A stretch of DNA of 43,639 bases from a virus (taxonomy: Duplodnaviria > Heunggongvirae > Uroviricota > Caudoviricetes). The DNA is taken from IMG/VR virus record IMGVR_UViG_2617270952_000006. One strand, 5' to 3'. The position numbers were made by a program, and so were the translations under genes. The number at the start of each line of letters is the position of its first letter. Within the stretch, counting starts at the first letter, position 1. Of this stretch, positions 35,507-43,639 are shown in pieces. Under the pieces are notes generated by a model. The model was not told the origin of the DNA. It worked only from the letters and a program-made list of their open reading frames with translations, and did not search any database.

Positions 35507-36166
35507 ATGAAAATGAAATGGTATGAACTGGCTAGATCCAGAATGAAAGAGCTCGGCATAACTCAAGAGAAGTTAGCTGAAGAGCTTGGTATGACGCAGG
35601 GTGGAATTGGTCACTGGTTGCGCGGATCTCGTCATCCATCTCTTGACGAGATTGGTGTGGTGTTTAAATACCTTGGTATTGATAACGTCTCATTCAACCA
35701 CGACGGTACATTTTCACCTGTTGGCGAATACTCATCTGCCCCCGTTAAAAAACAATATGAGTACCCTGTTTTTTCTCATGTTCAGGCCGGGATGTTCTCG
35801 CCTGAGCTTAGAACCTTTACCAAAGGTGATGCGGAGAGATGGGTCAGCACAACCAAAAAAGCCAGTGATTGTGCGTTTTGGCTTGAAGTTGAAGGTAATT
35901 CCATGACCGCGCCAACAGGATCCAAGCCAAGCTTTCCTGACGGGATGTTAATTCTCGTTGACCCTGATCAGGCTGTTGAGCCAGGTGATTTCTGCATAGC
36001 CAGACTTGGTGGTGACGAGTTTACCTTTAAGAAACTGATCAGGGATAGCGGTCAGGTGTTCCTCCAGCCACTAAACCCGCAATATCCAATGATTCCATGC
36101 AATGATAGCTGTTCCGTAGTAGGGAAAGTTATCGCCAGCCAGTGGCCTGAAGAGACATTTAGTTAA
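35507..36166 (+). CDS. cI: CI-type prophage repressor (LexA-like, RecA-stimulated autocleavage)
   Basis: N-terminal HTH (..[22 protein letters not shown]..), C-terminal S24 peptidase motifs (..GNSMTAP.. and ..FKKL..); ORF track extends upstream to 35465. Confidence 0.85.
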
Positions 36167-36198
36167 CAGCCTCACCACTCTAAAACACACAACAATAA

Positions 36199-36226
36199 CC
36201 CGACCTTAGCGTCGGGTTTTCTTTTT
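36199..36226 (+). terminator. Rho-independent terminator downstream of cI
   Basis: Hairpin cccgac-cttagc-gtcggg followed by ttttcttttt. Confidence 0.5.
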
Positions 36227-36291
36227 CCAAAATATAAACCCATTAAATACAAAGCGTTATAAAAAACTAATTATATTTAGAACATTTTGTA

Positions 36292-36320
36292 TTGACTCGA
36301 TAAAGTACAAATCGTACTAT
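36292..36320 (+). promoter_or_regulatory. pL promoter with overlapping operator (OL)
   Basis: -35 TTGACT (36292-36297), 17-nt spacer, -10 TACTAT (36315-36320); 19-bp motif AAAGTACAAATCGTACTAT (36302-36320) shared with OR. Confidence 0.5.
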
Positions 36321-36359
36321 TTAGCCATCAGCAGGACGCACTGACCACCATGAAGGTGA

Positions 36360-36390
36360 TGCTCTTAAAAATTAAGCCCTGAAGAAGGGC
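36360..36390 (+). promoter_or_regulatory. nutL site (boxA plus boxB hairpin)
   Basis: tgctcttaaaaattaa followed by gccctgaagaagggc, matching lambda nutL boxA/boxB. Confidence 0.7.
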
Positions 36391-36562
36391 AACCTTCAAA
36401 GCAGAAGGCTTTGGGGTGTGGTGAAGGGTTCATGGATGGGAATATGTCGCACGTAAAGCGGCGAGGCCTGCGGAACTATTGCCGAATTGAAGTCGGCCGA
36501 AGCAGGTCGAAATGGGTCTCCCACCTACCACACCACCAAAGCTAACTGACAGGAGAATCCAG

Positions 36563-36889
36563 ATGGATGCACAAACACGCCGCCGCGAACGTCGCGCAGA
36601 GAAACAGGCTCAATGGAAAGCAGCAAATCCCCTGTTGGTTGGGGTAAGCGCAAAACCAGTTAACCGCCCTATTCTCTCGCTGAATCGCAAACCGAAATCA
36701 CGAGTAGAAAGCGCACTGAATCCGATAGACCTTACAGTGCTGGCTGAATACCACGAACAGATTGAAAGCAACCTGCAACGTATTGAGCGCAAGAATCAGC
36801 GCACATGGTACAGCAAGCCACGCAGTGAAATGGGTGTAACTTGTGTTGGTCGCCAGAAAATGAAATTAGGCAGTAAACCACTTATTTGA
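36563..36889 (+). CDS. N: Antiterminator N (lambda-type)
   Basis: Product MDAQTRRRERRAEKQAQWKAANPLLVGVSAKPVNRPILSLNRKPKSRVESALNPIDLTVLAEYHEQIESNLQRIERKNQRTWYSKP.. recognised as lambda N with arginine-rich motif; AGGAG RBS. Confidence 0.85.
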   Translation: MDAQTRRRERRAEKQAQWKAANPLLVGVSAKPVNRPILSLNRKPKSRVESALNPIDLTVLAEYHEQIESNLQRIERKNQRTWYSKPRSEMGVTCVGRQKMKLGSKPLI

Positions 36890-36897
36890 GGTGAGAT

Positions 36898-37221
36898 ATG
36901 GAAGCATTAGTAGTAGAGCGAAGCGAGGATGGCTACTGGACGCACCCAGAATACGCCAACCTGTTTGGGGATAGAGAGGTAATTTCAGCTGATGAGTTCA
37001 GATCTTTCTGCAAGCAGCATGGCATTGAATCATCAATTGTTGAAATGGAAAACGACAACAATCAAACGGTAATTGACGCGTATTTTGAAGATGGGAATCA
37101 AAACATCAGTGGATGGGAGCCAAGCATGCCAGATGGAGAAGGATGGTTTGTCGGTTCGATTCACGATACAGAAGACGGTCCGATCTGCGTTTGGTTCAGG
37201 AATGTAGATAAGGCCGAATAG
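36898..37221 (+). CDS. Acidic 107-aa hypothetical protein immediately downstream of N
   Basis: Strongly D/E-rich product; GGTGAG RBS; stop codon sits in the loop of a terminator hairpin. Confidence 0.6.
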   Translation: MEALVVERSEDGYWTHPEYANLFGDREVISADEFRSFCKQHGIESSIVEMENDNNQTVIDAYFEDGNQNISGWEPSMPDGEGWFVGSIHDTEDGPICVWFRNVDKAE

Positions 37222-37236
37222 TCGGCCTTTATTTTT
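37212..37236 (+). terminator. Rho-independent terminator (tL1-like)
   Basis: Hairpin ggccga-atag-tcggcc followed by tttattttt. Confidence 0.55.
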
Positions 37237-37355
37237 GGCATAAACAACAGAATAAACACTGCACTGTGTATTCATTCCAACGAGTGAATACACGGAGCAA
37301 TGTCGCTCGTAACTAAACAGGAGCCGACTTGTTCTGATTATTGGAAATCTTCTTT

Positions 37356-37381
37356 GCCCTCCAATGTGAGGGCATTTTTTT
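37356..37381 (+). terminator. Second rho-independent terminator upstream of the 322-aa gene
   Basis: Hairpin gccctc-caatgt-gagggc followed by 8-nt T-run. Confidence 0.55.
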
Positions 37382-37393
37382 GATGGAGGATAT

Positions 37394-38362
37394 ATGAGTG
37401 AAGTAACAGATTTAGTTGTTATTGAAAAAGCAAATGCAATGACTGTATTTCAGTCTGCCGACCAGATTGAAGAAATCCTTCAAAAGGTTGAACGTGAAGT
37501 TATGTCCTTTGTGCCTGATATCACAACGGCAAAGGGCAGAAAGGAGATCGCTTCTCTGGCGTATAAAGTTGCGCAGACGAAAACATATCTCGATGGTCTT
37601 GGCAAAGACCTTGTTGCTGAACTGAAGGAAATTCCAAAGCTAATTGATGCTAACCGCAAGACAGTGCGTGATCGCCTTGATGAGCTGAAAGCCAAGGCGC
37701 GCCAGCCTCTTACTGATTATGAGGAAGAACAGGCGCGGATTAAAGCCGAAGAAGAAGCTAAGGCAGCAGCTGAAGCTCTCGCAAAGCAAATTGAGTCTGA
37801 CCATGAAATAGCTATTTTGATGGATCGCGAATTTGACCGCCAAAGAGAAGAGGCAAGACTCAAAGCGGAGCAGGAAAAGCGAGAGCATGAAGAACGATTA
37901 AAAAGAGAAGCTGAAGAGAAAGCCAGAGCAGAAGCCGAAGCAAAGGCAAAAGCCGAAATTGAAGCAGCAGCAAGGCGAGAAGCAGAAGCTAAGGCCGCAG
38001 CGGAACGTGCAGAGCGTGAACGCATTGAAGCCGAGCAACGAGCACAGCGCGAAGCAAAAGAGGCAGCAGAACGAGCTGAAAGAGAAAAGCAGGCAGCAAT
38101 TGAAGCAGAACGCAGAAAAGCACAGGAGGAGGCTGAACGAATCCGTCGCGAGGCTGAAGCAAAAGAGCAAGCCAGAATAGCAGAAGAAAAAAGAATCAAG
38201 GACGAAGAAGAGCGTAGAGCAAAGGATAAAGCTCACCGGAAAGAAGTAAATAACAAAATACTTGCTGACCTTATCAAGGTTGGCGCATCAGAAGATGTTG
38301 CTAAAAATATCATAACAGCCATCGTAAAAGGCGAAGTATTCGCAACAAAAATAACCTACTAA
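37394..38362 (+). CDS. Hypothetical 322-aa protein with N-terminal globular region and long E/A/K/R-rich coiled-coil-like low-complexity region
   Basis: Central ~150 aa are almost purely E/A/K/R (..EAEEKARAEAEAKAKAEIEAAARREAEAKAAAERAERE..), resembling TolA domain II-type helices; GGAGGA RBS. Confidence 0.65.
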   Translation: MSEVTDLVVIEKANAMTVFQSADQIEEILQKVEREVMSFVPDITTAKGRKEIASLAYKVAQTKTYLDGLGKDLVAELKEIPKLIDANRKTVRDRLDELKAKARQPLTDYEEEQARIKAEEEAKAAAEALAKQIESDHEIAILMDREFDRQREEARLKAEQEKREHEERLKREAEEKARAEAEAKAKAEIEAAARREAEAKAAAERAERERIEAEQRAQREAKEAAERAEREKQAAIEAERRKAQEEAERIRREAEAKEQARIAEEKRIKDEEERRAKDKAHRKEVNNKILADLIKVGASEDVAKNIITAIVKGEVFATKITY

Positions 38363-38386
38363 TAAAACCAACATAAGGAACCACCC

Positions 38387-38518
38387 ATGATTTACGCAAT
38401 CGCGGGAGGCGCTCGCATGGGTGCCTTCCAACTAAATGAATCTTTACTTGAACGAATCACCCGTAAATTGCGTGACGGATGGAAAAGAGTTGAGGTCTTA
38501 TTATGCGCAATGAAATAG
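38387..38518 (+). CDS. cIII: CIII-like protease inhibitor (43 aa; below ORF-track size cutoff)
   Basis: Translation MIYAIAGGARMGAFQLNESLLERITRKLRDGWKRVEVLLCAMK shares the ESLLERITRKLRDGWKR core with lambda CIII; AAGGAA RBS. Confidence 0.7.
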   Translation: MIYAIAGGARMGAFQLNESLLERITRKLRDGWKRVEVLLCAMK

Positions 38519-38655
38519 CCATCAATCACCAGATGCTTCGTGCAGCACAAAACAAAGCAGTAATAGCCAGATTTATTGGTGATTCAAAAATGTGGCTTGA
38601 AGCAAATAAAGCGATGAAATCAGCTATCAACCTTCCGTGGTATCGCAGGAAATGA
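38503..38655 (+). CDS. kil: Kil-like host cell-division inhibitor (50 aa)
   Basis: Translation MRNEIAINHQMLRAAQNKAVIARFIGDSKMWLEANKAMKSAINLPWYRRK; core ..IA.FIGD.KM..EA.. resembles lambda Kil; overlaps cIII 3' end. Confidence 0.6.
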   Translation: MRNEIAINHQMLRAAQNKAVIARFIGDSKMWLEANKAMKSAINLPWYRRK

Positions 38656-38822
38656 GTTTTACAGATAACTGGTCAGACGAAGAATTCATTCGTCAGATGA
38701 AAGAATTAATCGGTAACGAAGGAGATATTCATGTCACTTGCAACCACAGTGAAGGAGAGCAAGTTACAGAGACGCATGTACACGCAGCAGGCGTTAATGT
38801 ATCGCCAGAAGGGAGATCGTGA
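38652..38822 (+). CDS. Candidate small acidic protein (56 aa), frame A
   Basis: ATG overlaps kil stop (ATGA); MSFTDNWSDEEFIRQMKELIGNEGDIH..; overlaps alternative frame B by ~90 nt, so only one may be real. Confidence 0.3.
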   Translation: MSFTDNWSDEEFIRQMKELIGNEGDIHVTCNHSEGEQVTETHVHAAGVNVSPEGRS

Positions 38823-38901
38823 AGGTGTTCGCGTATTTTTAAATGCGGCAAAGACTGAAGTATTAAATCAGCGTTATTTCCTTGGGCCATGTCCATTCTG
38901 A
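38731..38901 (+). CDS. Candidate small basic protein (56 aa), frame B (Arf-like position before erf)
   Basis: ATG 38731 with GGAG RBS 6 nt upstream; MSLATTVKESKLQRRMYTQQALMYRQKGDREGVRVFLNAAK..; ends 10 nt before erf. Confidence 0.3.
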   Translation: MSLATTVKESKLQRRMYTQQALMYRQKGDREGVRVFLNAAKTEVLNQRYFLGPCPF

Positions 38902-38911
38902 GAACAATCAT

Positions 38912-39517
38912 ATGAGCAAAGAATTTTACGCAAGACTGGCAGCTATTCAGGAGAATCTGAACGCGCCAAAGAATCAGTACAACTCATTCGGCAAATATAA
39001 ATACAGAAGCTGCGAAGACATTCTTGAAAGCGTTAAGCCGTTACTGAATGGCCTGTTTTTATCAATCAGCGATGAAGTTGTGTTGATTGGTGATCGGTAT
39101 TACGTGAAAGCCACGGCAACTATTACCGATGGCGAAAACAGTCATACGGCAACCGCTCTTGCACGAGAGGAAGAAAGCAAGAAAGGAATGGATTCTGCAC
39201 AAGTTACGGGAGCTACAAGCTCTTATGCACGCAAGTATTGCCTCAATGGTTTATTCGGCATTGATGATGCGAAAGATGCAGATACCGACGAGCATAAACA
39301 TCAGCAGAACGCAGCAGCAAAGCAATCAAAACCATCACCTACGCCTGAACAGGTTCTAAAAGCATTCACTGACGCAGCAATGCAGAAAAACACCGTGGAA
39401 GAGCTTAAACAGGCGTTCGCCAAAGCGTGGAAGATGCTCGAAGGCACACCGGAGCAGCACAAAGCGCAGGACGTTTACAACATCAGACGAGACGAATTAG
39501 AAGGGGCAACTGCTTAA
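38912..39517 (+). CDS. erf: Erf single-strand annealing recombinase (P22 Erf-like)
   Basis: Product MSKEFYARLAAIQENLNAPKNQYNSFGKYKYRSCEDILESVKPLLNGLFLSISDEVVLIGDRYYVKATATITDGENSH.. recognised as P22 Erf. Confidence 0.9.
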   Translation: MSKEFYARLAAIQENLNAPKNQYNSFGKYKYRSCEDILESVKPLLNGLFLSISDEVVLIGDRYYVKATATITDGENSHTATALAREEESKKGMDSAQVTGATSSYARKYCLNGLFGIDDAKDADTDEHKHQQNAAAKQSKPSPTPEQVLKAFTDAAMQKNTVEELKQAFAKAWKMLEGTPEQHKAQDVYNIRRDELEGATA

Positions 39518-39900
39518 TGGCACATTCGATTACAGTAAGACTAAACAAGCCCGCAAGAGAGTTTCAGGCCGGGGAAAATATCGGATTCAACATCCGTGCT
39601 GGCGTTCAGTATTACGATCGCCAGACAAAAAAGAAAGAATGGACAAACTACAGCGCCGTTGTATTTGCCAAGCCGGGAGCGCAAGCGGATTACTACCGTA
39701 GTGTTCTTGTTGAAGGTGGCATTGTGGAAATTACCGGAGAAAACATCAGGGTAGATGTTTATCAGGGGCAAAATGGTCAATCAATCACTCTTGAATTACT
39801 GAATGCAAAGATTGGATTTGCAACTTCAGGAAACAGCCAACAGCAGCAAAGTAGCAATCATCAAAATCATCCTGAATACGACGATTCAATCCCCTTCTAG
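39517..39900 (+). CDS. Phage SSB-like protein with acidic C-terminal tip
   Basis: 127-aa product from ATG overlapping erf stop; ends ..PEYDDSIPF, the hallmark SSB C-terminal motif; Q/S-rich linker before it. Confidence 0.65.
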   Translation: MAHSITVRLNKPAREFQAGENIGFNIRAGVQYYDRQTKKKEWTNYSAVVFAKPGAQADYYRSVLVEGGIVEITGENIRVDVYQGQNGQSITLELLNAKIGFATSGNSQQQQSSNHQNHPEYDDSIPF

Positions 39901-39923
39901 ATTAGCAAAATAAGGATTCCATT

Positions 39924-40217
39924 ATGCCAGCGCCTCTGTATGGTGCGGATGACCCGCGCCGCTGTTCCGGCAATTCCGTATCGGAGGTGCTGGATAAATT
40001 CAGAAAAAACTACGATCGGATAATGTCGCTACCGCAGGAAACGAAAGAGGAAAAGGAATTTCGCCACTGCATATGGCTTGCAGAGAAAGAAGAGCGCGAG
40101 CGAATTTACCAGACATCAATCCGACCATTCCGCAAAGCCACATATACCCACTTCCCTGAAATTGACCCGCGCCTGCGTAATTACCGCTCACGTTATGGCG
40201 CTATCAGTAATGACTGA
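39924..40217 (+). CDS. Hypothetical protein (97 aa)
   Basis: ORF with AAGGA RBS 6 nt upstream of ATG. Confidence 0.5.
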
Positions 40218-40395
40218 GGAATTTACCATGAGAGGACTTGCATACAATCCCGGCATTCTTCCGGCAGAAATGATTATTCGCCAACGCGTAAAGCCAATGC
40301 CATCGAGAGAGGAATTGCTTAAGAGAAATTCTTTTCCATCAGTGAATCAAAACAAATATCTGAATGCGATGTGGCGCAAAGGAGGCAACCAGTGA
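40210..40395 (+). CDS. Hypothetical protein (61 aa)
   Basis: ATG overlaps upstream stop (ATGA); ORF track lists a longer in-frame version from 40078. Confidence 0.4.
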
Positions 40396-41054
40396 GCAAG
40401 ATTAACTATCAGGCACTACGTGATGCGGCAGAAAAGGCAACACAGGGTGAATGGGTCGCATTTATTTCGCCGGGCAAATACGGCACGTACGCCGTACACA
40501 CACCAGGTGATAATCATCACGGAGATATTGTCGACTGGCCAGGATTCGACGAACAGAAAAACGCAGAGAACAACGCTCGTTATATCGCAGCTTTCAACCC
40601 TGAAGTAGTGCAGGCGCTGCTGGATGAACGGGAAAGAAACCAGCAATACATCAAATCACGCGACAAGGAGAACGAGGAAATTGCGCTAACGGTAGGGAAG
40701 CTGCGTGTTGAGCTGGAAGCCGCAGAGAAGCGCAACGCAAAATTACAAAGCGAGAATGCATACATCCGCAACCGGTTCAAAGAACTGGACCTGTTAATCG
40801 GGAAAAACATTCTGGTCATGCAGGCTGCCATTATCGAATGGCAGGCAACTGGCGACGCTAAGAGCGGACTGGCATGGATTTATAACACACTGTTTGGCCC
40901 TGGCGAATTACCGGACGAATCTGAGAAAGATGCTCAGGCCTACTTTAATCGCAAATATGCACCGATTGACGAAAAGCTTATGGAGCTTCACAAGTGGTTT
41001 TGGGAACAAAGTGAAGCCGAGCGCGCTGCTGGTATTCGCATCAAAGGAGAGTGA
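40392..41054 (+). CDS. Ead/Ea22-like family protein
   Basis: Start assigned to GTG 40392 (6 nt after GGAGG RBS; ORF track starts 40371); coiled-coil-containing product of a type common in lambdoid early-left regions. Confidence 0.55.
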
Positions 41055-41055
41055 T

Positions 41056-41622
41056 ATGAGCGCTATAACCAAAGAACGTATCGAATTATTCATTAAAAAT
41101 CCGCTTGATAACGGACTTACCCGTGGCGAACAAATGGAACTGGCACGAATTGCACTGGCATCACTGGCAGCAGTATCGGATGAACGAGCAGCCTATGAAT
41201 TATTTATGGAGAAGCGTTTCGGGGAATCTGTAGATCGCCGCAGGGCGAAAAATGGCGATAGAGAATACATGGCATGGGATATGGCGCTTGGCTGGATTAT
41301 CTGGTGTCACCGCGCCGCCATGCTTCAGACTGGAAACTTTCGGGAAAATAAGGATTCGTCAACCAATAATTTTCGGGAAACCTCGGAAACGTCAACCAAC
41401 TCTCCGGTAACTCCGGATAGTTGGATAAGCTGTAGTGAGCGGATGCCAGAGGACGGTCAGCACGTAATTATTTTATGTGATGGCGCATTCGTTCTTTATG
41501 CGCAATATCGAGACGGTGAGTTTTTTGATGTCGTCCGCAATGGTGAGGAGTTCTTCGAAACGCAGAGCCGCAATGTAACCGACTGGATGCCTCTACCAGA
41601 ACCGCCGCAGGAGGTGAAGTGA
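41056..41622 (+). CDS. DUF551-domain phage protein
   Basis: C-terminal region ..WISCSERMPEDGQHVIILCDGAFVLYAQYRDGEFFDVVRNGEEFFETQSRNVTDWMPLPEPP.. fits DUF551; AAGGAGA RBS; contains short internal tandem repeat. Confidence 0.6.
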   Translation: MSAITKERIELFIKNPLDNGLTRGEQMELARIALASLAAVSDERAAYELFMEKRFGESVDRRRAKNGDREYMAWDMALGWIIWCHRAAMLQTGNFRENKDSSTNNFRETSETSTNSPVTPDSWISCSERMPEDGQHVIILCDGAFVLYAQYRDGEFFDVVRNGEEFFETQSRNVTDWMPLPEPPQEVK

Positions 41623-41900
41623 TGGACTCCTTCGCGAAATATACGATCATTGACTGGATAGCATTCCTTCAGGTTTTGCTCATCTGGTTTTATATGGCTT
41701 ACAGGAGTGGGCAGTGGATTGTCAACATGGCCTGTAGCAGGGGATGGCGTTGGTGGAACCGAAAGAATAAAAAAGCACTGGCATTGGATTCGTTTTACGA
41801 AGCATTCAATCTTAACAGCCTTCAGCCTGGTTCTGTCATTGTAGTCACCACTCAAAGCGGCATGACCATTCAGATTCATAAACCAAAAGAGGAAAAATGA
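41622..41900 (+). CDS. Hypothetical small membrane protein (92 aa)
   Basis: ATG overlaps DUF551 stop; one hydrophobic helix (..IIDWIAFLQVLLIWFYMAY..). Confidence 0.45.
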   Translation: MDSFAKYTIIDWIAFLQVLLIWFYMAYRSGQWIVNMACSRGWRWWNRKNKKALALDSFYEAFNLNSLQPGSVIVVTTQSGMTIQIHKPKEEK

Positions 41901-41986
41901 TGTGGCCTATATGTGTTAATTGCGGACGGATGTGCCTATCTGGATGGTGCCGAAAGTGCGACAAATGCACGAAGCAAAGACAATAA
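41897..41986 (+). CDS. Candidate 29-aa Cys-rich mini-ORF (zinc-ribbon-like)
   Basis: MMWPICVNCGRMCLSGWCRKCDKCTKQRQ; ATG overlaps upstream stop; followed by hairpin/T-tract. Confidence 0.3.
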   Translation: MMWPICVNCGRMCLSGWCRKCDKCTKQRQ

Positions 41987-42028
41987 CAATCCTCGCACTC
42001 GCGGGGATTTCTTTTATATGGGGATAAT

Positions 42029-42829
42029 ATGACCATCCACTTTCACGGCAGCCCAATATGGGGTGATGAGCATGCCCCTACAGATATGCTGATTAAAGCC
42101 CTTTACCGTGATGGTGGGGCTTTTGTTTCATTTGCCAGACCAGAGCAGATGAAAAAGATTGCCATGTTCCCTTGTGATATACGCCTTGATAACGGTGCTT
42201 TTAGCGACTGGATGAAAGCATTAAAGAAAGGCACTCCGGTAGACTGGAGTAAGAGACGAGCAAAATTCTACGACTTTGTTGGGACGTGGTTCAGCAGAAT
42301 TGAATGGTTTCTTATACCTGACGTTATCGAAGGGACAGAGGCAGAAAACGACGAGCAGATTGAGTTGGTTCCTGATTGGCTAAAATCAAAAGCGGTTCCG
42401 GTCTGGCATACCGACGAATCAATTGAACGTCTTTTACGCCTTTCTGGCAAATTTGAATGGGTGGCGATTGGATGCTGCGGCCCACACAGGCACATACGCT
42501 CTAAATGGTGGGAACAGAGAATGGATGAAGTTTTTACTGAGATTTATATCAATCGTAATTTGAAAGTGAAAATTCATGGTCTTCGAATGCTCGACGTGAG
42601 AGTTCTTGGTATGTATCCGTTCGCCAGTGCGGATTCTACTAATGTTGCTGTTAACGTACCGAAGACAGAGAAGCGATTTCCTGAGATTACCGACAAACTG
42701 GCACGTACAGCTGTACTTCGCGCAGCTATTGAAAAGGTGCACCCACCATCGATATCAGCATGGGTAGACAGAAAGAGGAGAGAGCCGGCGCAAGCCGGTT
42801 TTTTATTTGAATTCACCGACGCCGCTTAA
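42029..42829 (+). CDS. Hypothetical 266-aa protein (moron-like cassette)
   Basis: Stand-alone ORF bounded on both sides by hairpin/T-tract elements; no motif confidently recognised. Confidence 0.6.
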   Translation: MTIHFHGSPIWGDEHAPTDMLIKALYRDGGAFVSFARPEQMKKIAMFPCDIRLDNGAFSDWMKALKKGTPVDWSKRRAKFYDFVGTWFSRIEWFLIPDVIEGTEAENDEQIELVPDWLKSKAVPVWHTDESIERLLRLSGKFEWVAIGCCGPHRHIRSKWWEQRMDEVFTEIYINRNLKVKIHGLRMLDVRVLGMYPFASADSTNVAVNVPKTEKRFPEITDKLARTAVLRAAIEKVHPPSISAWVDRKRREPAQAGFLFEFTDAA

Positions 42830-42886
42830 TGCGGATTTCTTTTATCTGAACTCGCTACGGCGGGTTTTGTTTTATGGAGATGATAA

Positions 42887-43054
42887 ATGCACTTCCGAGT
42901 CACAGGTGAATGGAATGGAGAGCCATTCAACAGGGTTATCGAAGCAGAGGACATCAACGACTGCTATAACCACTGGATGATATGGGCGCAGATAGCGCAT
43001 GCAGACGTAACCAATATTCGAATTGAAGAACTGAAAGAACACCAAGACGCCTGA
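42887..43054 (+). CDS. Candidate 55-aa protein (below ORF-track cutoff)
   Basis: ATG 42887 preceded by GGAG; MHFRVTGEWNGEPFNRVIEAEDINDCYNHWMIWAQIAHADVTNIRIEELKEHQDA. Confidence 0.35.
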   Translation: MHFRVTGEWNGEPFNRVIEAEDINDCYNHWMIWAQIAHADVTNIRIEELKEHQDA

Positions 43055-43078
43055 TGGCGGTTTTTTTGGGGGTAGTAG

Positions 43079-43294
43079 ATGGCTGCAATTCACATTGTAT
43101 CAATAACATGCAATGCAATTCAGATAGTTGCTTGCATTATCTTTGTTTTCTCAATCCTTCGCTCCCGACGATATTCTCCAGCAATTAACCGACATCCTGC
43201 ACAAGTTGAAGCCGTCAGGATGGCTATAGAGCTACGAAATGAGATGAATAAGGCATTAATGGAGATGGAGAAACCATTCACTGACAAACATTAA
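43079..43294 (+). CDS. Hypothetical small membrane protein (71 aa)
   Basis: N-terminal hydrophobic helix (..IVSITCNAIQIVACIIFVFSIL..). Confidence 0.4.
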   Translation: MAAIHIVSITCNAIQIVACIIFVFSILRSRRYSPAINRHPAQVEAVRMAIELRNEMNKALMEMEKPFTDKH

Positions 43295-43372
43295 GAGTGG
43301 AAATAAAGAAATCACACCGCCTCACACTCGATGAGGCATTTTCATTTATCAAGATATCCAGACCTACCATCG

Positions 43373-43394
43373 CCGCATCAATGCGGTTTTTTTA
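43373..43394 (+). terminator. Rho-independent terminator upstream of excisionase gene
   Basis: Hairpin ccgcat-ca-atgcgg followed by 7-nt T-run. Confidence 0.5.
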
Positions 43395-43438
43395 TTGCCT
43401 GATTTGCAGGTTTGATTCCCTATTTGGAGATAGCACTC

Positions 43439-43639
43439 ATGCAACACGAACTACAGCCTGATTCACTGGTTGATTTGAAATTCATCATGGCCGATACTGG
43501 CTTCGGTAAAACCTTCATCTATGACCGGATTAAGTCCGGCGACCTGCCTAAAGCCAAAGTTATCCACGGACGAGCAAGATGGTTATATCGTGACCATTGT
43601 GAATTCAAAAATAAGCTCTTAAGCCGCGCCAATGGGTAA
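43439..43639 (+). CDS. torI: Excisionase / recombination directionality factor, AlpA-TorI family
   Basis: 66-aa product MQHELQPDSLVDLKFIMADTGFGKTFIYDRIKSGDLPKAKVIHGRARWLYRDHCEFKNKLLSRANG recognised as TorI-like (KplE1 excisionase); stop at window end. Confidence 0.8.
   Translation: MQHELQPDSLVDLKFIMADTGFGKTFIYDRIKSGDLPKAKVIHGRARWLYRDHCEFKNKLLSRANG

Follow-up and report, generated by a model that had tools for sequence, protein, structure and literature searches.

The gene that lies near the excisionase gene in the early-left region of a P22-like prophage raises the question of what it encodes and how its product might be used by the phage. The DNA concerned is a stretch of 43,639 nucleotides from a virus of the class Caudoviricetes (IMG/VR record IMGVR_UViG_2617270952_000006), referred to below as the window. 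It represents an Escherichia coli prophage of the HK620/CUS-3/P22-like group with an excisionase of the TorI/KplE1 type, a context that had been recognized correctly in the initial annotation. The gene is an open reading frame (ORF) of 266 codons at 42029-42829. Its coordinates, plus strand, ATG start and isolated position near xis are exactly as first described, at which time no family was recognized for it and an accessory role in lysogenic conversion or defense was proposed. The comparisons described here suggest that the protein is a previously unannotated, minimal phage DpdA, a member of the tRNA-guanine transglycosylase (TGT) superfamily that is encoded on its own ("solo") and has no structural zinc site. 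Members of the phage DpdA family exchange guanine in DNA for a 7-deazaguanine.

The assignment is carried by family profiles and by the catalytic residues. The protein matches PHROG 887, "queuine tRNA-ribosyltransferase", over its whole length with E = 5e-102. Phage CAjan DpdA matches this PHROG as well (8e-96), and deletion of dpdA abolishes dPreQ0 in CAjan DNA (PMC6884629). The alignment of a 61-sequence family profile with CAjan DpdA by hhalign has a probability of 98.9% and E = 2.2e-17, and brings the catalytic motifs into register. Only seven residues are invariant across the 61 sequences (D54, D98, H127, G148, H183, D202 and S203), and all of them are intact in the window copy. In order and spacing these residues agree with CAjan DpdA, and they are colinear with the corresponding residues of E. 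coli Tgt. From D54 to D202 the successive spacings are 44, 29, 21, 35 and 19 residues in the window protein, 42, 27, 21, 34 and 19 in CAjan DpdA (D63, D105, H132, G153, H187, D206), and 54, 44, 26, 31 and 20 in E. coli Tgt (D89, D143, Q187, G213, M244, D264).

The probable roles of these residues can be read from the bacterial DpdA (bDpdA), in which Asp256 has been proposed as the nucleophile and Asp95 as the general acid/base; the alanine mutants of both lost guanine exchange (PMC10164549). D54 is at the end of β3 in the predicted structure and in the same alignment column as CAjan D63 (LDSGAFS). The segment D54-N-G-A-F58 fits the D-x-G-x-F/Y acid/base motif, which is represented by Asp95/Phe99 in bDpdA and by D89 in E. 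coli Tgt. D202 (SADST) is at the end of β8, shares its column with CAjan D206 (SCDSS), and has the nucleophilic aspartates Asp256 of bDpdA and D264 of E. coli Tgt as its counterparts. Residues 147-209 of CAjan DpdA map to positions 200-259 of the PADLOC model of bacterial DpdA, which places the CAjan GGM on G206-G207-M208 and D206 on Asp256. D98 and H127 are found at the ends of β4 and β5, respectively, and H127 aligns with CAjan H132. They were compared with the residues at the base edge in bDpdA and Tgt, Asp130/D143 after β4 and His181 (His or Gln) after β5.

The predicted fold is a (β/α)8 TIM barrel of the TGT/DpdA type. Some results call for caution. D98 is placed by hhalign three residues off CAjan D105. 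Foldseek comparison with the PDB gave generic TIM barrels only, with TM-scores of at most 0.52, a non-specific result that speaks for the fold class alone. Searches of sequences with hidden Markov models (HMMs) reached neither TGT nor any PDB chain, and hhalign to the single E. coli Tgt sequence gave a probability of 0.5%. With phmmer and two profiles of rising diversity, the PDB yielded nothing or chance matches to GCN4 coiled coils; CAjan DpdA finds no match there by sequence either.

Scans of the 266-residue protein with Pfam, NCBIfam and PADLOC gave nothing even at E<=10, which explains why every listed E. coli copy in RefSeq is labeled "hypothetical protein"; the GenBank copy of phage HK106 has the same label. 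The statement that no family is recognizable thus holds for these three collections and fails for PHROGs, and it reflects a gap in Pfam and NCBIfam that extends to CAjan DpdA. Among the 61 family members, Pfam produced chance matches only, and none (0/61) matched PF01702. Because Pfam misses the validated CAjan DpdA as well, its null result is uninformative; the E. coli Tgt control scored 560 bits. No cysteine follows D202, and the only cysteines, at positions 49, 149 and 150, are not conserved, showing that the structural zinc site of TGT and bDpdA is absent. This site is missing also from CAjan DpdA and from Cap10, and it is therefore not a defining feature of phage DpdAs.

The ORF is a real gene, judging from the number of its homologues and from a low ratio of nonsynonymous to synonymous substitution (dN/dS). 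Homologues number 2230 at E<=1e-5, forming 1746 clusters at 50% identity, and dN/dS relative to 83-87% identical relatives is 0.04-0.07. Of 5426 complete E. coli genomes, 82 have the gene, in every case on the chromosome and with identities of 95-99.8%, one copy being slightly lower. A 2-kb query spanning the gene (41600-43639) matches 3077 of the same 5426 genomes. In all 30 E. coli-type loci recovered, the full-length gene lies between abc2 and xis with variable upstream neighbors, and phrog_676 follows at a constant offset of +858 in 23 of them. One related E. coli prophage (locus L090, 2929-3084; strain 30821_1#330) is a deletion derivative from which the entire ea region, and with it the 266-codon gene, has gone. 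The junction is marked by what is left of the ORF, approximately its final 84 nt, joined to a truncated DUF2737 gene. These observations support the description of the gene as an accessory, swappable cassette in the xis-proximal early-left region. The accessory status proposed at first is borne out by the rarity of the gene, its changing neighbors and its loss from L090, and a housekeeping early protein shared by all relatives would not be confined to 82 genomes. Two of the 12 sampled copies are split. In H21 (NZ_CP121087.1) and H22 (NZ_AP045057.1) the alignment of the gene covers 800 instead of 801 nt, and the annotation has two hypothetical proteins in place of one; these copies have probably been inactivated by a 1-nt frameshift.

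On the plus strand from 36512, genes for an N-like antiterminator, Erf, SSB, Abc2, an Ea22-like protein, a DUF551-like protein and a DUF4752 protein are followed by a 29-codon Cys-rich ORF, the 266-codon ORF, phrog_676 and xis. The syntenic region of the lambdoid phage HK106 is annotated with PL and N, and its HK106_029 is 97.7% identical to the 266-residue protein. In agreement with that annotation, the early-left operon carrying the gene is the PL operon. The ribosome-binding site behind a hairpin that had been noted earlier is present, and the following hairpin is in fact one of two terminator-like hairpins at the 3' side. A crude consensus scan of the plus strand found no sigma-70-like promoter 5' of the ORF. 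In lambdoid phages, N-modified polymerase reads through such hairpins. Since the gene has no promoter of its own and is preceded by a hairpin within an N-antiterminated PL operon, we infer that it is expressed upon infection or induction, and not in the lysogen.

The genes surrounding the homologues, compared in 136 loci, provide hints to the substrate. In relatives with 57-87% identity, a gene of the VUT/YhhQ family adjoins the start codon in 24 viral loci, with a gap of 0-3 nt. The preQ0 transporter of E. coli belongs to VUT/YhhQ. The VUT-DpdA-like pair occurs also in 12 genomes of Solirubrobacterales (Actinomycetota), a different phylum far from the enterobacterial phages (L110, L115, L117, L118, L120, L124, L125, L127, L130, L131, L133 and L137). 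A coupled VUT/YhhQ gene is found in 36 of the 136 loci, and que genes are nearby in two. Nine loci (L006/L007 5540-7383; L044; L046-L048; L093-L095) carry C-terminal fusions of the homologue with a DNA methyltransferase. Eight of these partners are of the Dam (PF05869) type and one, from Rosenbergiella (L095), is of the D12 type, so that at least two independent fusion events took place. PADLOC identifies the partner domain as an orphan methyltransferase (E = 7e-31), and in eight further loci a methyltransferase is encoded separately, no more than 300 nt away; these counts were made with an HMM of the methyltransferase domain only, excluding the DpdA half. In three of these loci (L006, L007 and L044), a translationally coupled VUT (PF02592) gene lies 5' of the fusion, and together they form a compact module of uptake and two DNA modifications. 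Among distant bacterial homologues, one is abutted by QueE (L128, 2148-3149), and another, from Paraburkholderia sp. HD33-4 (L122, 8629-10471), has FolE-QueD-QueE about 3 kb downstream. Both link the ~250-residue clade to the preQ0 pathway without recourse to the phage data.

The 31 loci of the E. coli clade (>= 97% identity) contain no VUT, methyltransferase or que partners. Searches of the window by tblastn with CAjan FolE, QueD, QueE, QueC and YhhQ and with the VUT protein of phage PEAT2 found none of them. The queC gene is present in 5425 of the 5426 E. coli genomes. As the prophage carries neither synthesis nor uptake genes, the base would have to be taken from the queuosine pathway of the host. 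Other DpdAs, when expressed alone in E. coli, put the preQ0 or preQ1 of the host into DNA (PMC10516641).

We consider it rather probable that the protein is a solo phage DpdA, expressed from PL, which inserts a host-derived 7-deazaguanine into phage DNA as an accessory means of anti-restriction or self-marking. After infection or prophage induction, the gene would be transcribed from PL in the N-antiterminated operon together with the recombination genes erf, ssb and abc2. The enzyme would excise guanine at a limited number of DNA sites by double displacement, with D202 as the nucleophile paired with H183, in the manner of the D248/H226 pair of Cap10. D54 would serve as the general acid/base and F58 as a stacking partner of the base, whose edge would be read by D98 and H127. 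In place of the guanine, the enzyme would put in a 7-deazaguanine from the host queuosine pathway, either preQ0 or the amide of preQ0, ADG. The outcome would be sparse dADG or dPreQ0 marks on the replicating phage DNA, and these might serve as an accessory anti-restriction or self-marking signal, like the orphan DNA methyltransferases often fused to this gene family. What is shown are the family, the fold, the conserved catalytic residues, the place in the operon, the lack of precursor genes in the window alongside queC in nearly all hosts, and the gene neighborhoods; that DNA and not RNA or protein is the substrate, which base is used, when the gene is expressed and how the phage profits are inferred. 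The loop contacting the 7-substituent is GCCG in the window protein, GSSG in the family consensus and GGM in preQ0-inserting DpdAs, and the inserted base is therefore not predictable for the window protein. Given the dADG found in relatives, direct insertion of ADG is a possibility.

That possibility can be extended into a more specific but doubtful proposal. The zinc-less ~250-residue solo clade, with GCCG/GSSG in the pocket loop in place of GGM/GGL, might be a functionally distinct DpdA subfamily. It would insert ADG itself, obtained from the host QueC reaction or by VUT import, at a small number of defined DNA positions, as an epigenetic mark of the orphan kind that works next to orphan methyltransferases. 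For the window phage this would mean narrow, site-specific marking at a handful of positions per genome, possibly mimicking the dADG self-mark of the Dpd system or providing a regulatory or packaging signal, and we regard such a function as unlikely, although several observations agree with it. In the solo-DpdA phages tested, the modification is dADG instead of dPreQ0, at levels of about 50-354 per 1e6 nt. The DNA of Salmonella phage 7-11 contains 50 dADG per 1e6 nt (PMC6884629), about nine sites per 90-kb genome, and that of Pantoea phage MED16 contains 354 dADG per 1e6 nt and traces of dPreQ0, with no detectable protection from restriction (PMC8306585), a result that fits a mark other than an anti-restriction one. 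Similarly low modification has been reported for bDpdA (<0.1% of G). ADG is an intermediate of QueC, whose gene is practically universal in E. coli; the pocket loop is unlike that of preQ0-inserting DpdAs; and the methyltransferases to which the gene is frequently fused are self-mark mimics. Against it, dADG could form after insertion or during sample work-up. If true, a distinct ADG-inserting subfamily would explain the sparse dADG in solo-DpdA phages that have no DpdC-like enzyme.

An RNA target, with the protein as a phage TGT that biases translation by remodeling the queuosine status of tRNA from the host or the phage, is improbable. The protein has neither the zinc subdomain, as the lack of cysteines after D202 indicates, nor the C-terminal tRNA-holding insertions of TGTs, it has 266 instead of 375 residues, and it is not matched by the Pfam TGT model. 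It shares its PHROG with a proven DNA enzyme, the DNA of its relatives is modified, the fusions with DNA methyltransferases of two classes, which arose independently, speak for DNA as the substrate, and E. coli has a Tgt of its own. A function in prophage defense or lysogenic conversion, as the initial annotation had it, might take the form of a Cap10-like activity on a protein-linked 7-deazaguanine or of a marking of host DNA for exclusion, and is very improbable. PADLOC gives no match at E<=10, and the window contains no Cap9/QueC-like gene, CD-NTase, DpdB or dpdC-K. The gene has no promoter of its own and is preceded by a terminator-like hairpin within the PL operon, and its homologues occur in the virulent phages 7-11, MED16 and PEAT2, in which protection of a lysogen would make no sense. 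These homologues are DNA-modifying enzymes of phages, which places them with counter-defense rather than defense. The two split copies among the 12 sampled might be taken as a sign of a dead gene; that the ORF is a decaying, functionless remnant, or an unrelated TIM-barrel enzyme, is nevertheless hardly credible in view of the hhalign match to CAjan DpdA with aligned catalytic motifs, the seven intact invariant residues, a dN/dS of 0.04-0.2 and a conservation of 95-99.8% across the 82 genomes.

Positions of the gene, its invariant codons and the elements around it in the window
Feature	Position	Strand	Remarks
N-like antiterminator	36512..36889	+	head of the early-left operon that holds the 266-codon ORF
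Upstream terminator-like hairpin	41988..42019	+	AATCCTCGC-ACTC-GCGGGGATT (41988-42009) and T-run
16-nt direct repeat, left copy	42005..42020	+	GGATTTCTTTTATATG; repeat family D3
Shine-Dalgarno-like GGGGA	42021..42025	+	4-8 nt 5' of the ATG; read from sequence
Putative solo DpdA-type (TGT-superfamily) transglycosylase ORF	42029..42829	+	266 aa, ATG start; ORF list, PHROG, alignments, predicted structure
Codon of D54	42188-42190		family-invariant
Codon of D98	42320-42322		family-invariant
Codon of H127	42407-42409		family-invariant
Codon of G148	42470-42472		family-invariant
Codon of H183	42575-42577		family-invariant
Codons of D202-S203	42632-42637		family-invariant
Terminator-like hairpin in the 3' end of the ORF	42779..42810	+	GCCGGC-GCAA-GCCGGT (42779-42804) and T6; within the last 15 codons
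16-nt direct repeat, right copy	42833..42848	+	GGATTTCTTTTATCTG; begins 4 nt past the stop codon
Second downstream hairpin	42848..42877	+	hairpin 42848-42867 and T-run, then ribosome-binding site and ATG of the phrog_676 gene
phrog_676, next small gene	42887-43054	+	

The cassette is delimited by short elements. The upstream hairpin, directly 3' of the 29-codon Cys-rich ORF, forms the left boundary and is aligned with the downstream one. A direct repeat, GGATTTCTTTTAT(A/C)TG, is present in two copies that are 15/16 identical, one on each side of the ORF. The hairpin within the 3' end of the gene is translated as a disordered tail, ...PAQAGFLFEF, with predicted local confidence (pLDDT) below 50, and its DNA is kept in L090, which has lost the gene. 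A tail resembling PAxAGF(L/F) is seen also in homologues that are only 43-46% identical (P0110, P0111 and P0119 in alignment A1). This recurrence suggests that the 3' end of the gene (42779-42829 in the window) contains a conserved terminator or recombination boundary. Terminator-like sites are numerous throughout 36000-43639, with 19 observed against 8.5 +/- 2.8 in shuffled sequences.

Two other ORFs of the operon deserve mention. The Cys-rich ORF (41897-41986, plus strand) has the sequence MMWPICVNCGRMCLSGWCRKCDKCTKQRQ, with a zinc-ribbon-like CxxC...CxxCxxC pattern. It overlaps the stop codon of the DUF4752 gene, ends just 5' of the upstream hairpin, is annotated as HK106_030 in HK106, and has no match in a Pfam scan. 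A 322-residue ORF (37394-38362, plus strand) matches only PHROGs of unknown function (1376, 21365 and 17211) and neither Pfam nor PADLOC. It is larger than the 266-codon ORF and equally without a family, so that the latter, contrary to the initial annotation, is not the largest unrecognized ORF of the early region.

The DpdA assignment corrects the "hypothetical protein" labels of the E. coli RefSeq copies and of HK106 in GenBank. Taken by itself it is ordinary, but it brings a puzzling class of enzymes into a temperate coliphage that is tractable. It shows in addition that genes for 7-deazaguanine DNA modification travel singly, as cassettes, among temperate P22-like and lambdoid phages of E. 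coli, and are not limited to virulent phages that have complete biosynthetic clusters. The role of solo DpdAs is an acknowledged open question: why is the mark dADG, why is it sparse, and what is its benefit? A literature search found no paper on DpdA in HK106 or other lambdoid phages. The copy in the genetically tractable HK106, which grows on E. coli K-12, for which que and yhhQ mutants exist, makes the question directly testable. The tight coupling of VUT to DpdA across phyla and the repeated fusions to two methyltransferase classes add new, circumstantial support for an action of the clade on DNA with a scavenged base.

Several known systems can be compared with the window gene. The bacterial DpdA of the Dpd restriction-modification system (PDB 7ui4; PMC10164549) has 413 residues, a zinc site and the Ins8 insertion, and works with the DpdB ATPase within a dpdA-K island, all of which are absent here. 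Membership in that system was rejected on the basis of size (266 versus 413 residues), the lack of a PADLOC DpdA match at E<=10, and neighbors that are phage early genes. Relative to canonical TGT (PF01702) and archaeosine TGT, the window protein is about 110 residues shorter and has no zinc subdomain or tRNA-binding elements. A canonical TGT was rejected because there is no PF01702 match at E<=10, no CxCxxC...H zinc subdomain and no hhalign match to E. coli Tgt. Cap10 of type IV CBASS (PDB 9ntn; bioRxiv 10.1101/2025.04.06.647259) acts with the QueC-like Cap9 and a CD-NTase on a protein-linked base. The window has no QueC-like ORF and no PADLOC match, and the neighbors are erf, ssb, abc2, ea22-like and xis, so that Cap10 was rejected as well.

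CAjan DpdA1, a validated dPreQ0 insertase, shares with the window protein PHROG 887, a near-identical motif spacing and the absence of the CxCxxC zinc motif. The two differ in that CAjan DpdA1 is only ~19% identical, has 306 residues and a GGM pocket loop in place of GCCG, is encoded in a folE-queD-yhhQ-queC-queE cluster, and modifies ~32% of G, whereas the window gene stands alone.

The closest described relatives are gp032 of phage 7-11 (58% identical over the full length) and gp38 of phage MED16 (43%, full length, E = 1e-69), which have the ~250-residue minimal architecture and the PHROG in common with the window protein. Both are solo, or "singleton", DpdAs of gamma-proteobacterial phages (group 3 of Hutinet 2019), from genomes that contain no preQ0 synthesis genes (PMC6884629; PMC8306585). 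The singleton group may be functionally diverged according to Hutinet et al. (PMC6884629), and MED16 DpdA matches the TGT 2ASH with a probability of 99.2% in HHpred (PMC8306585). The link of these genes to dADG in 7-11 and MED16 DNA is correlative. While 7-11 and MED16 are virulent, the window copy belongs to a temperate P22-like prophage (and, in HK106, to a lambdoid phage), in which it lies in the PL operon adjoining xis/int.
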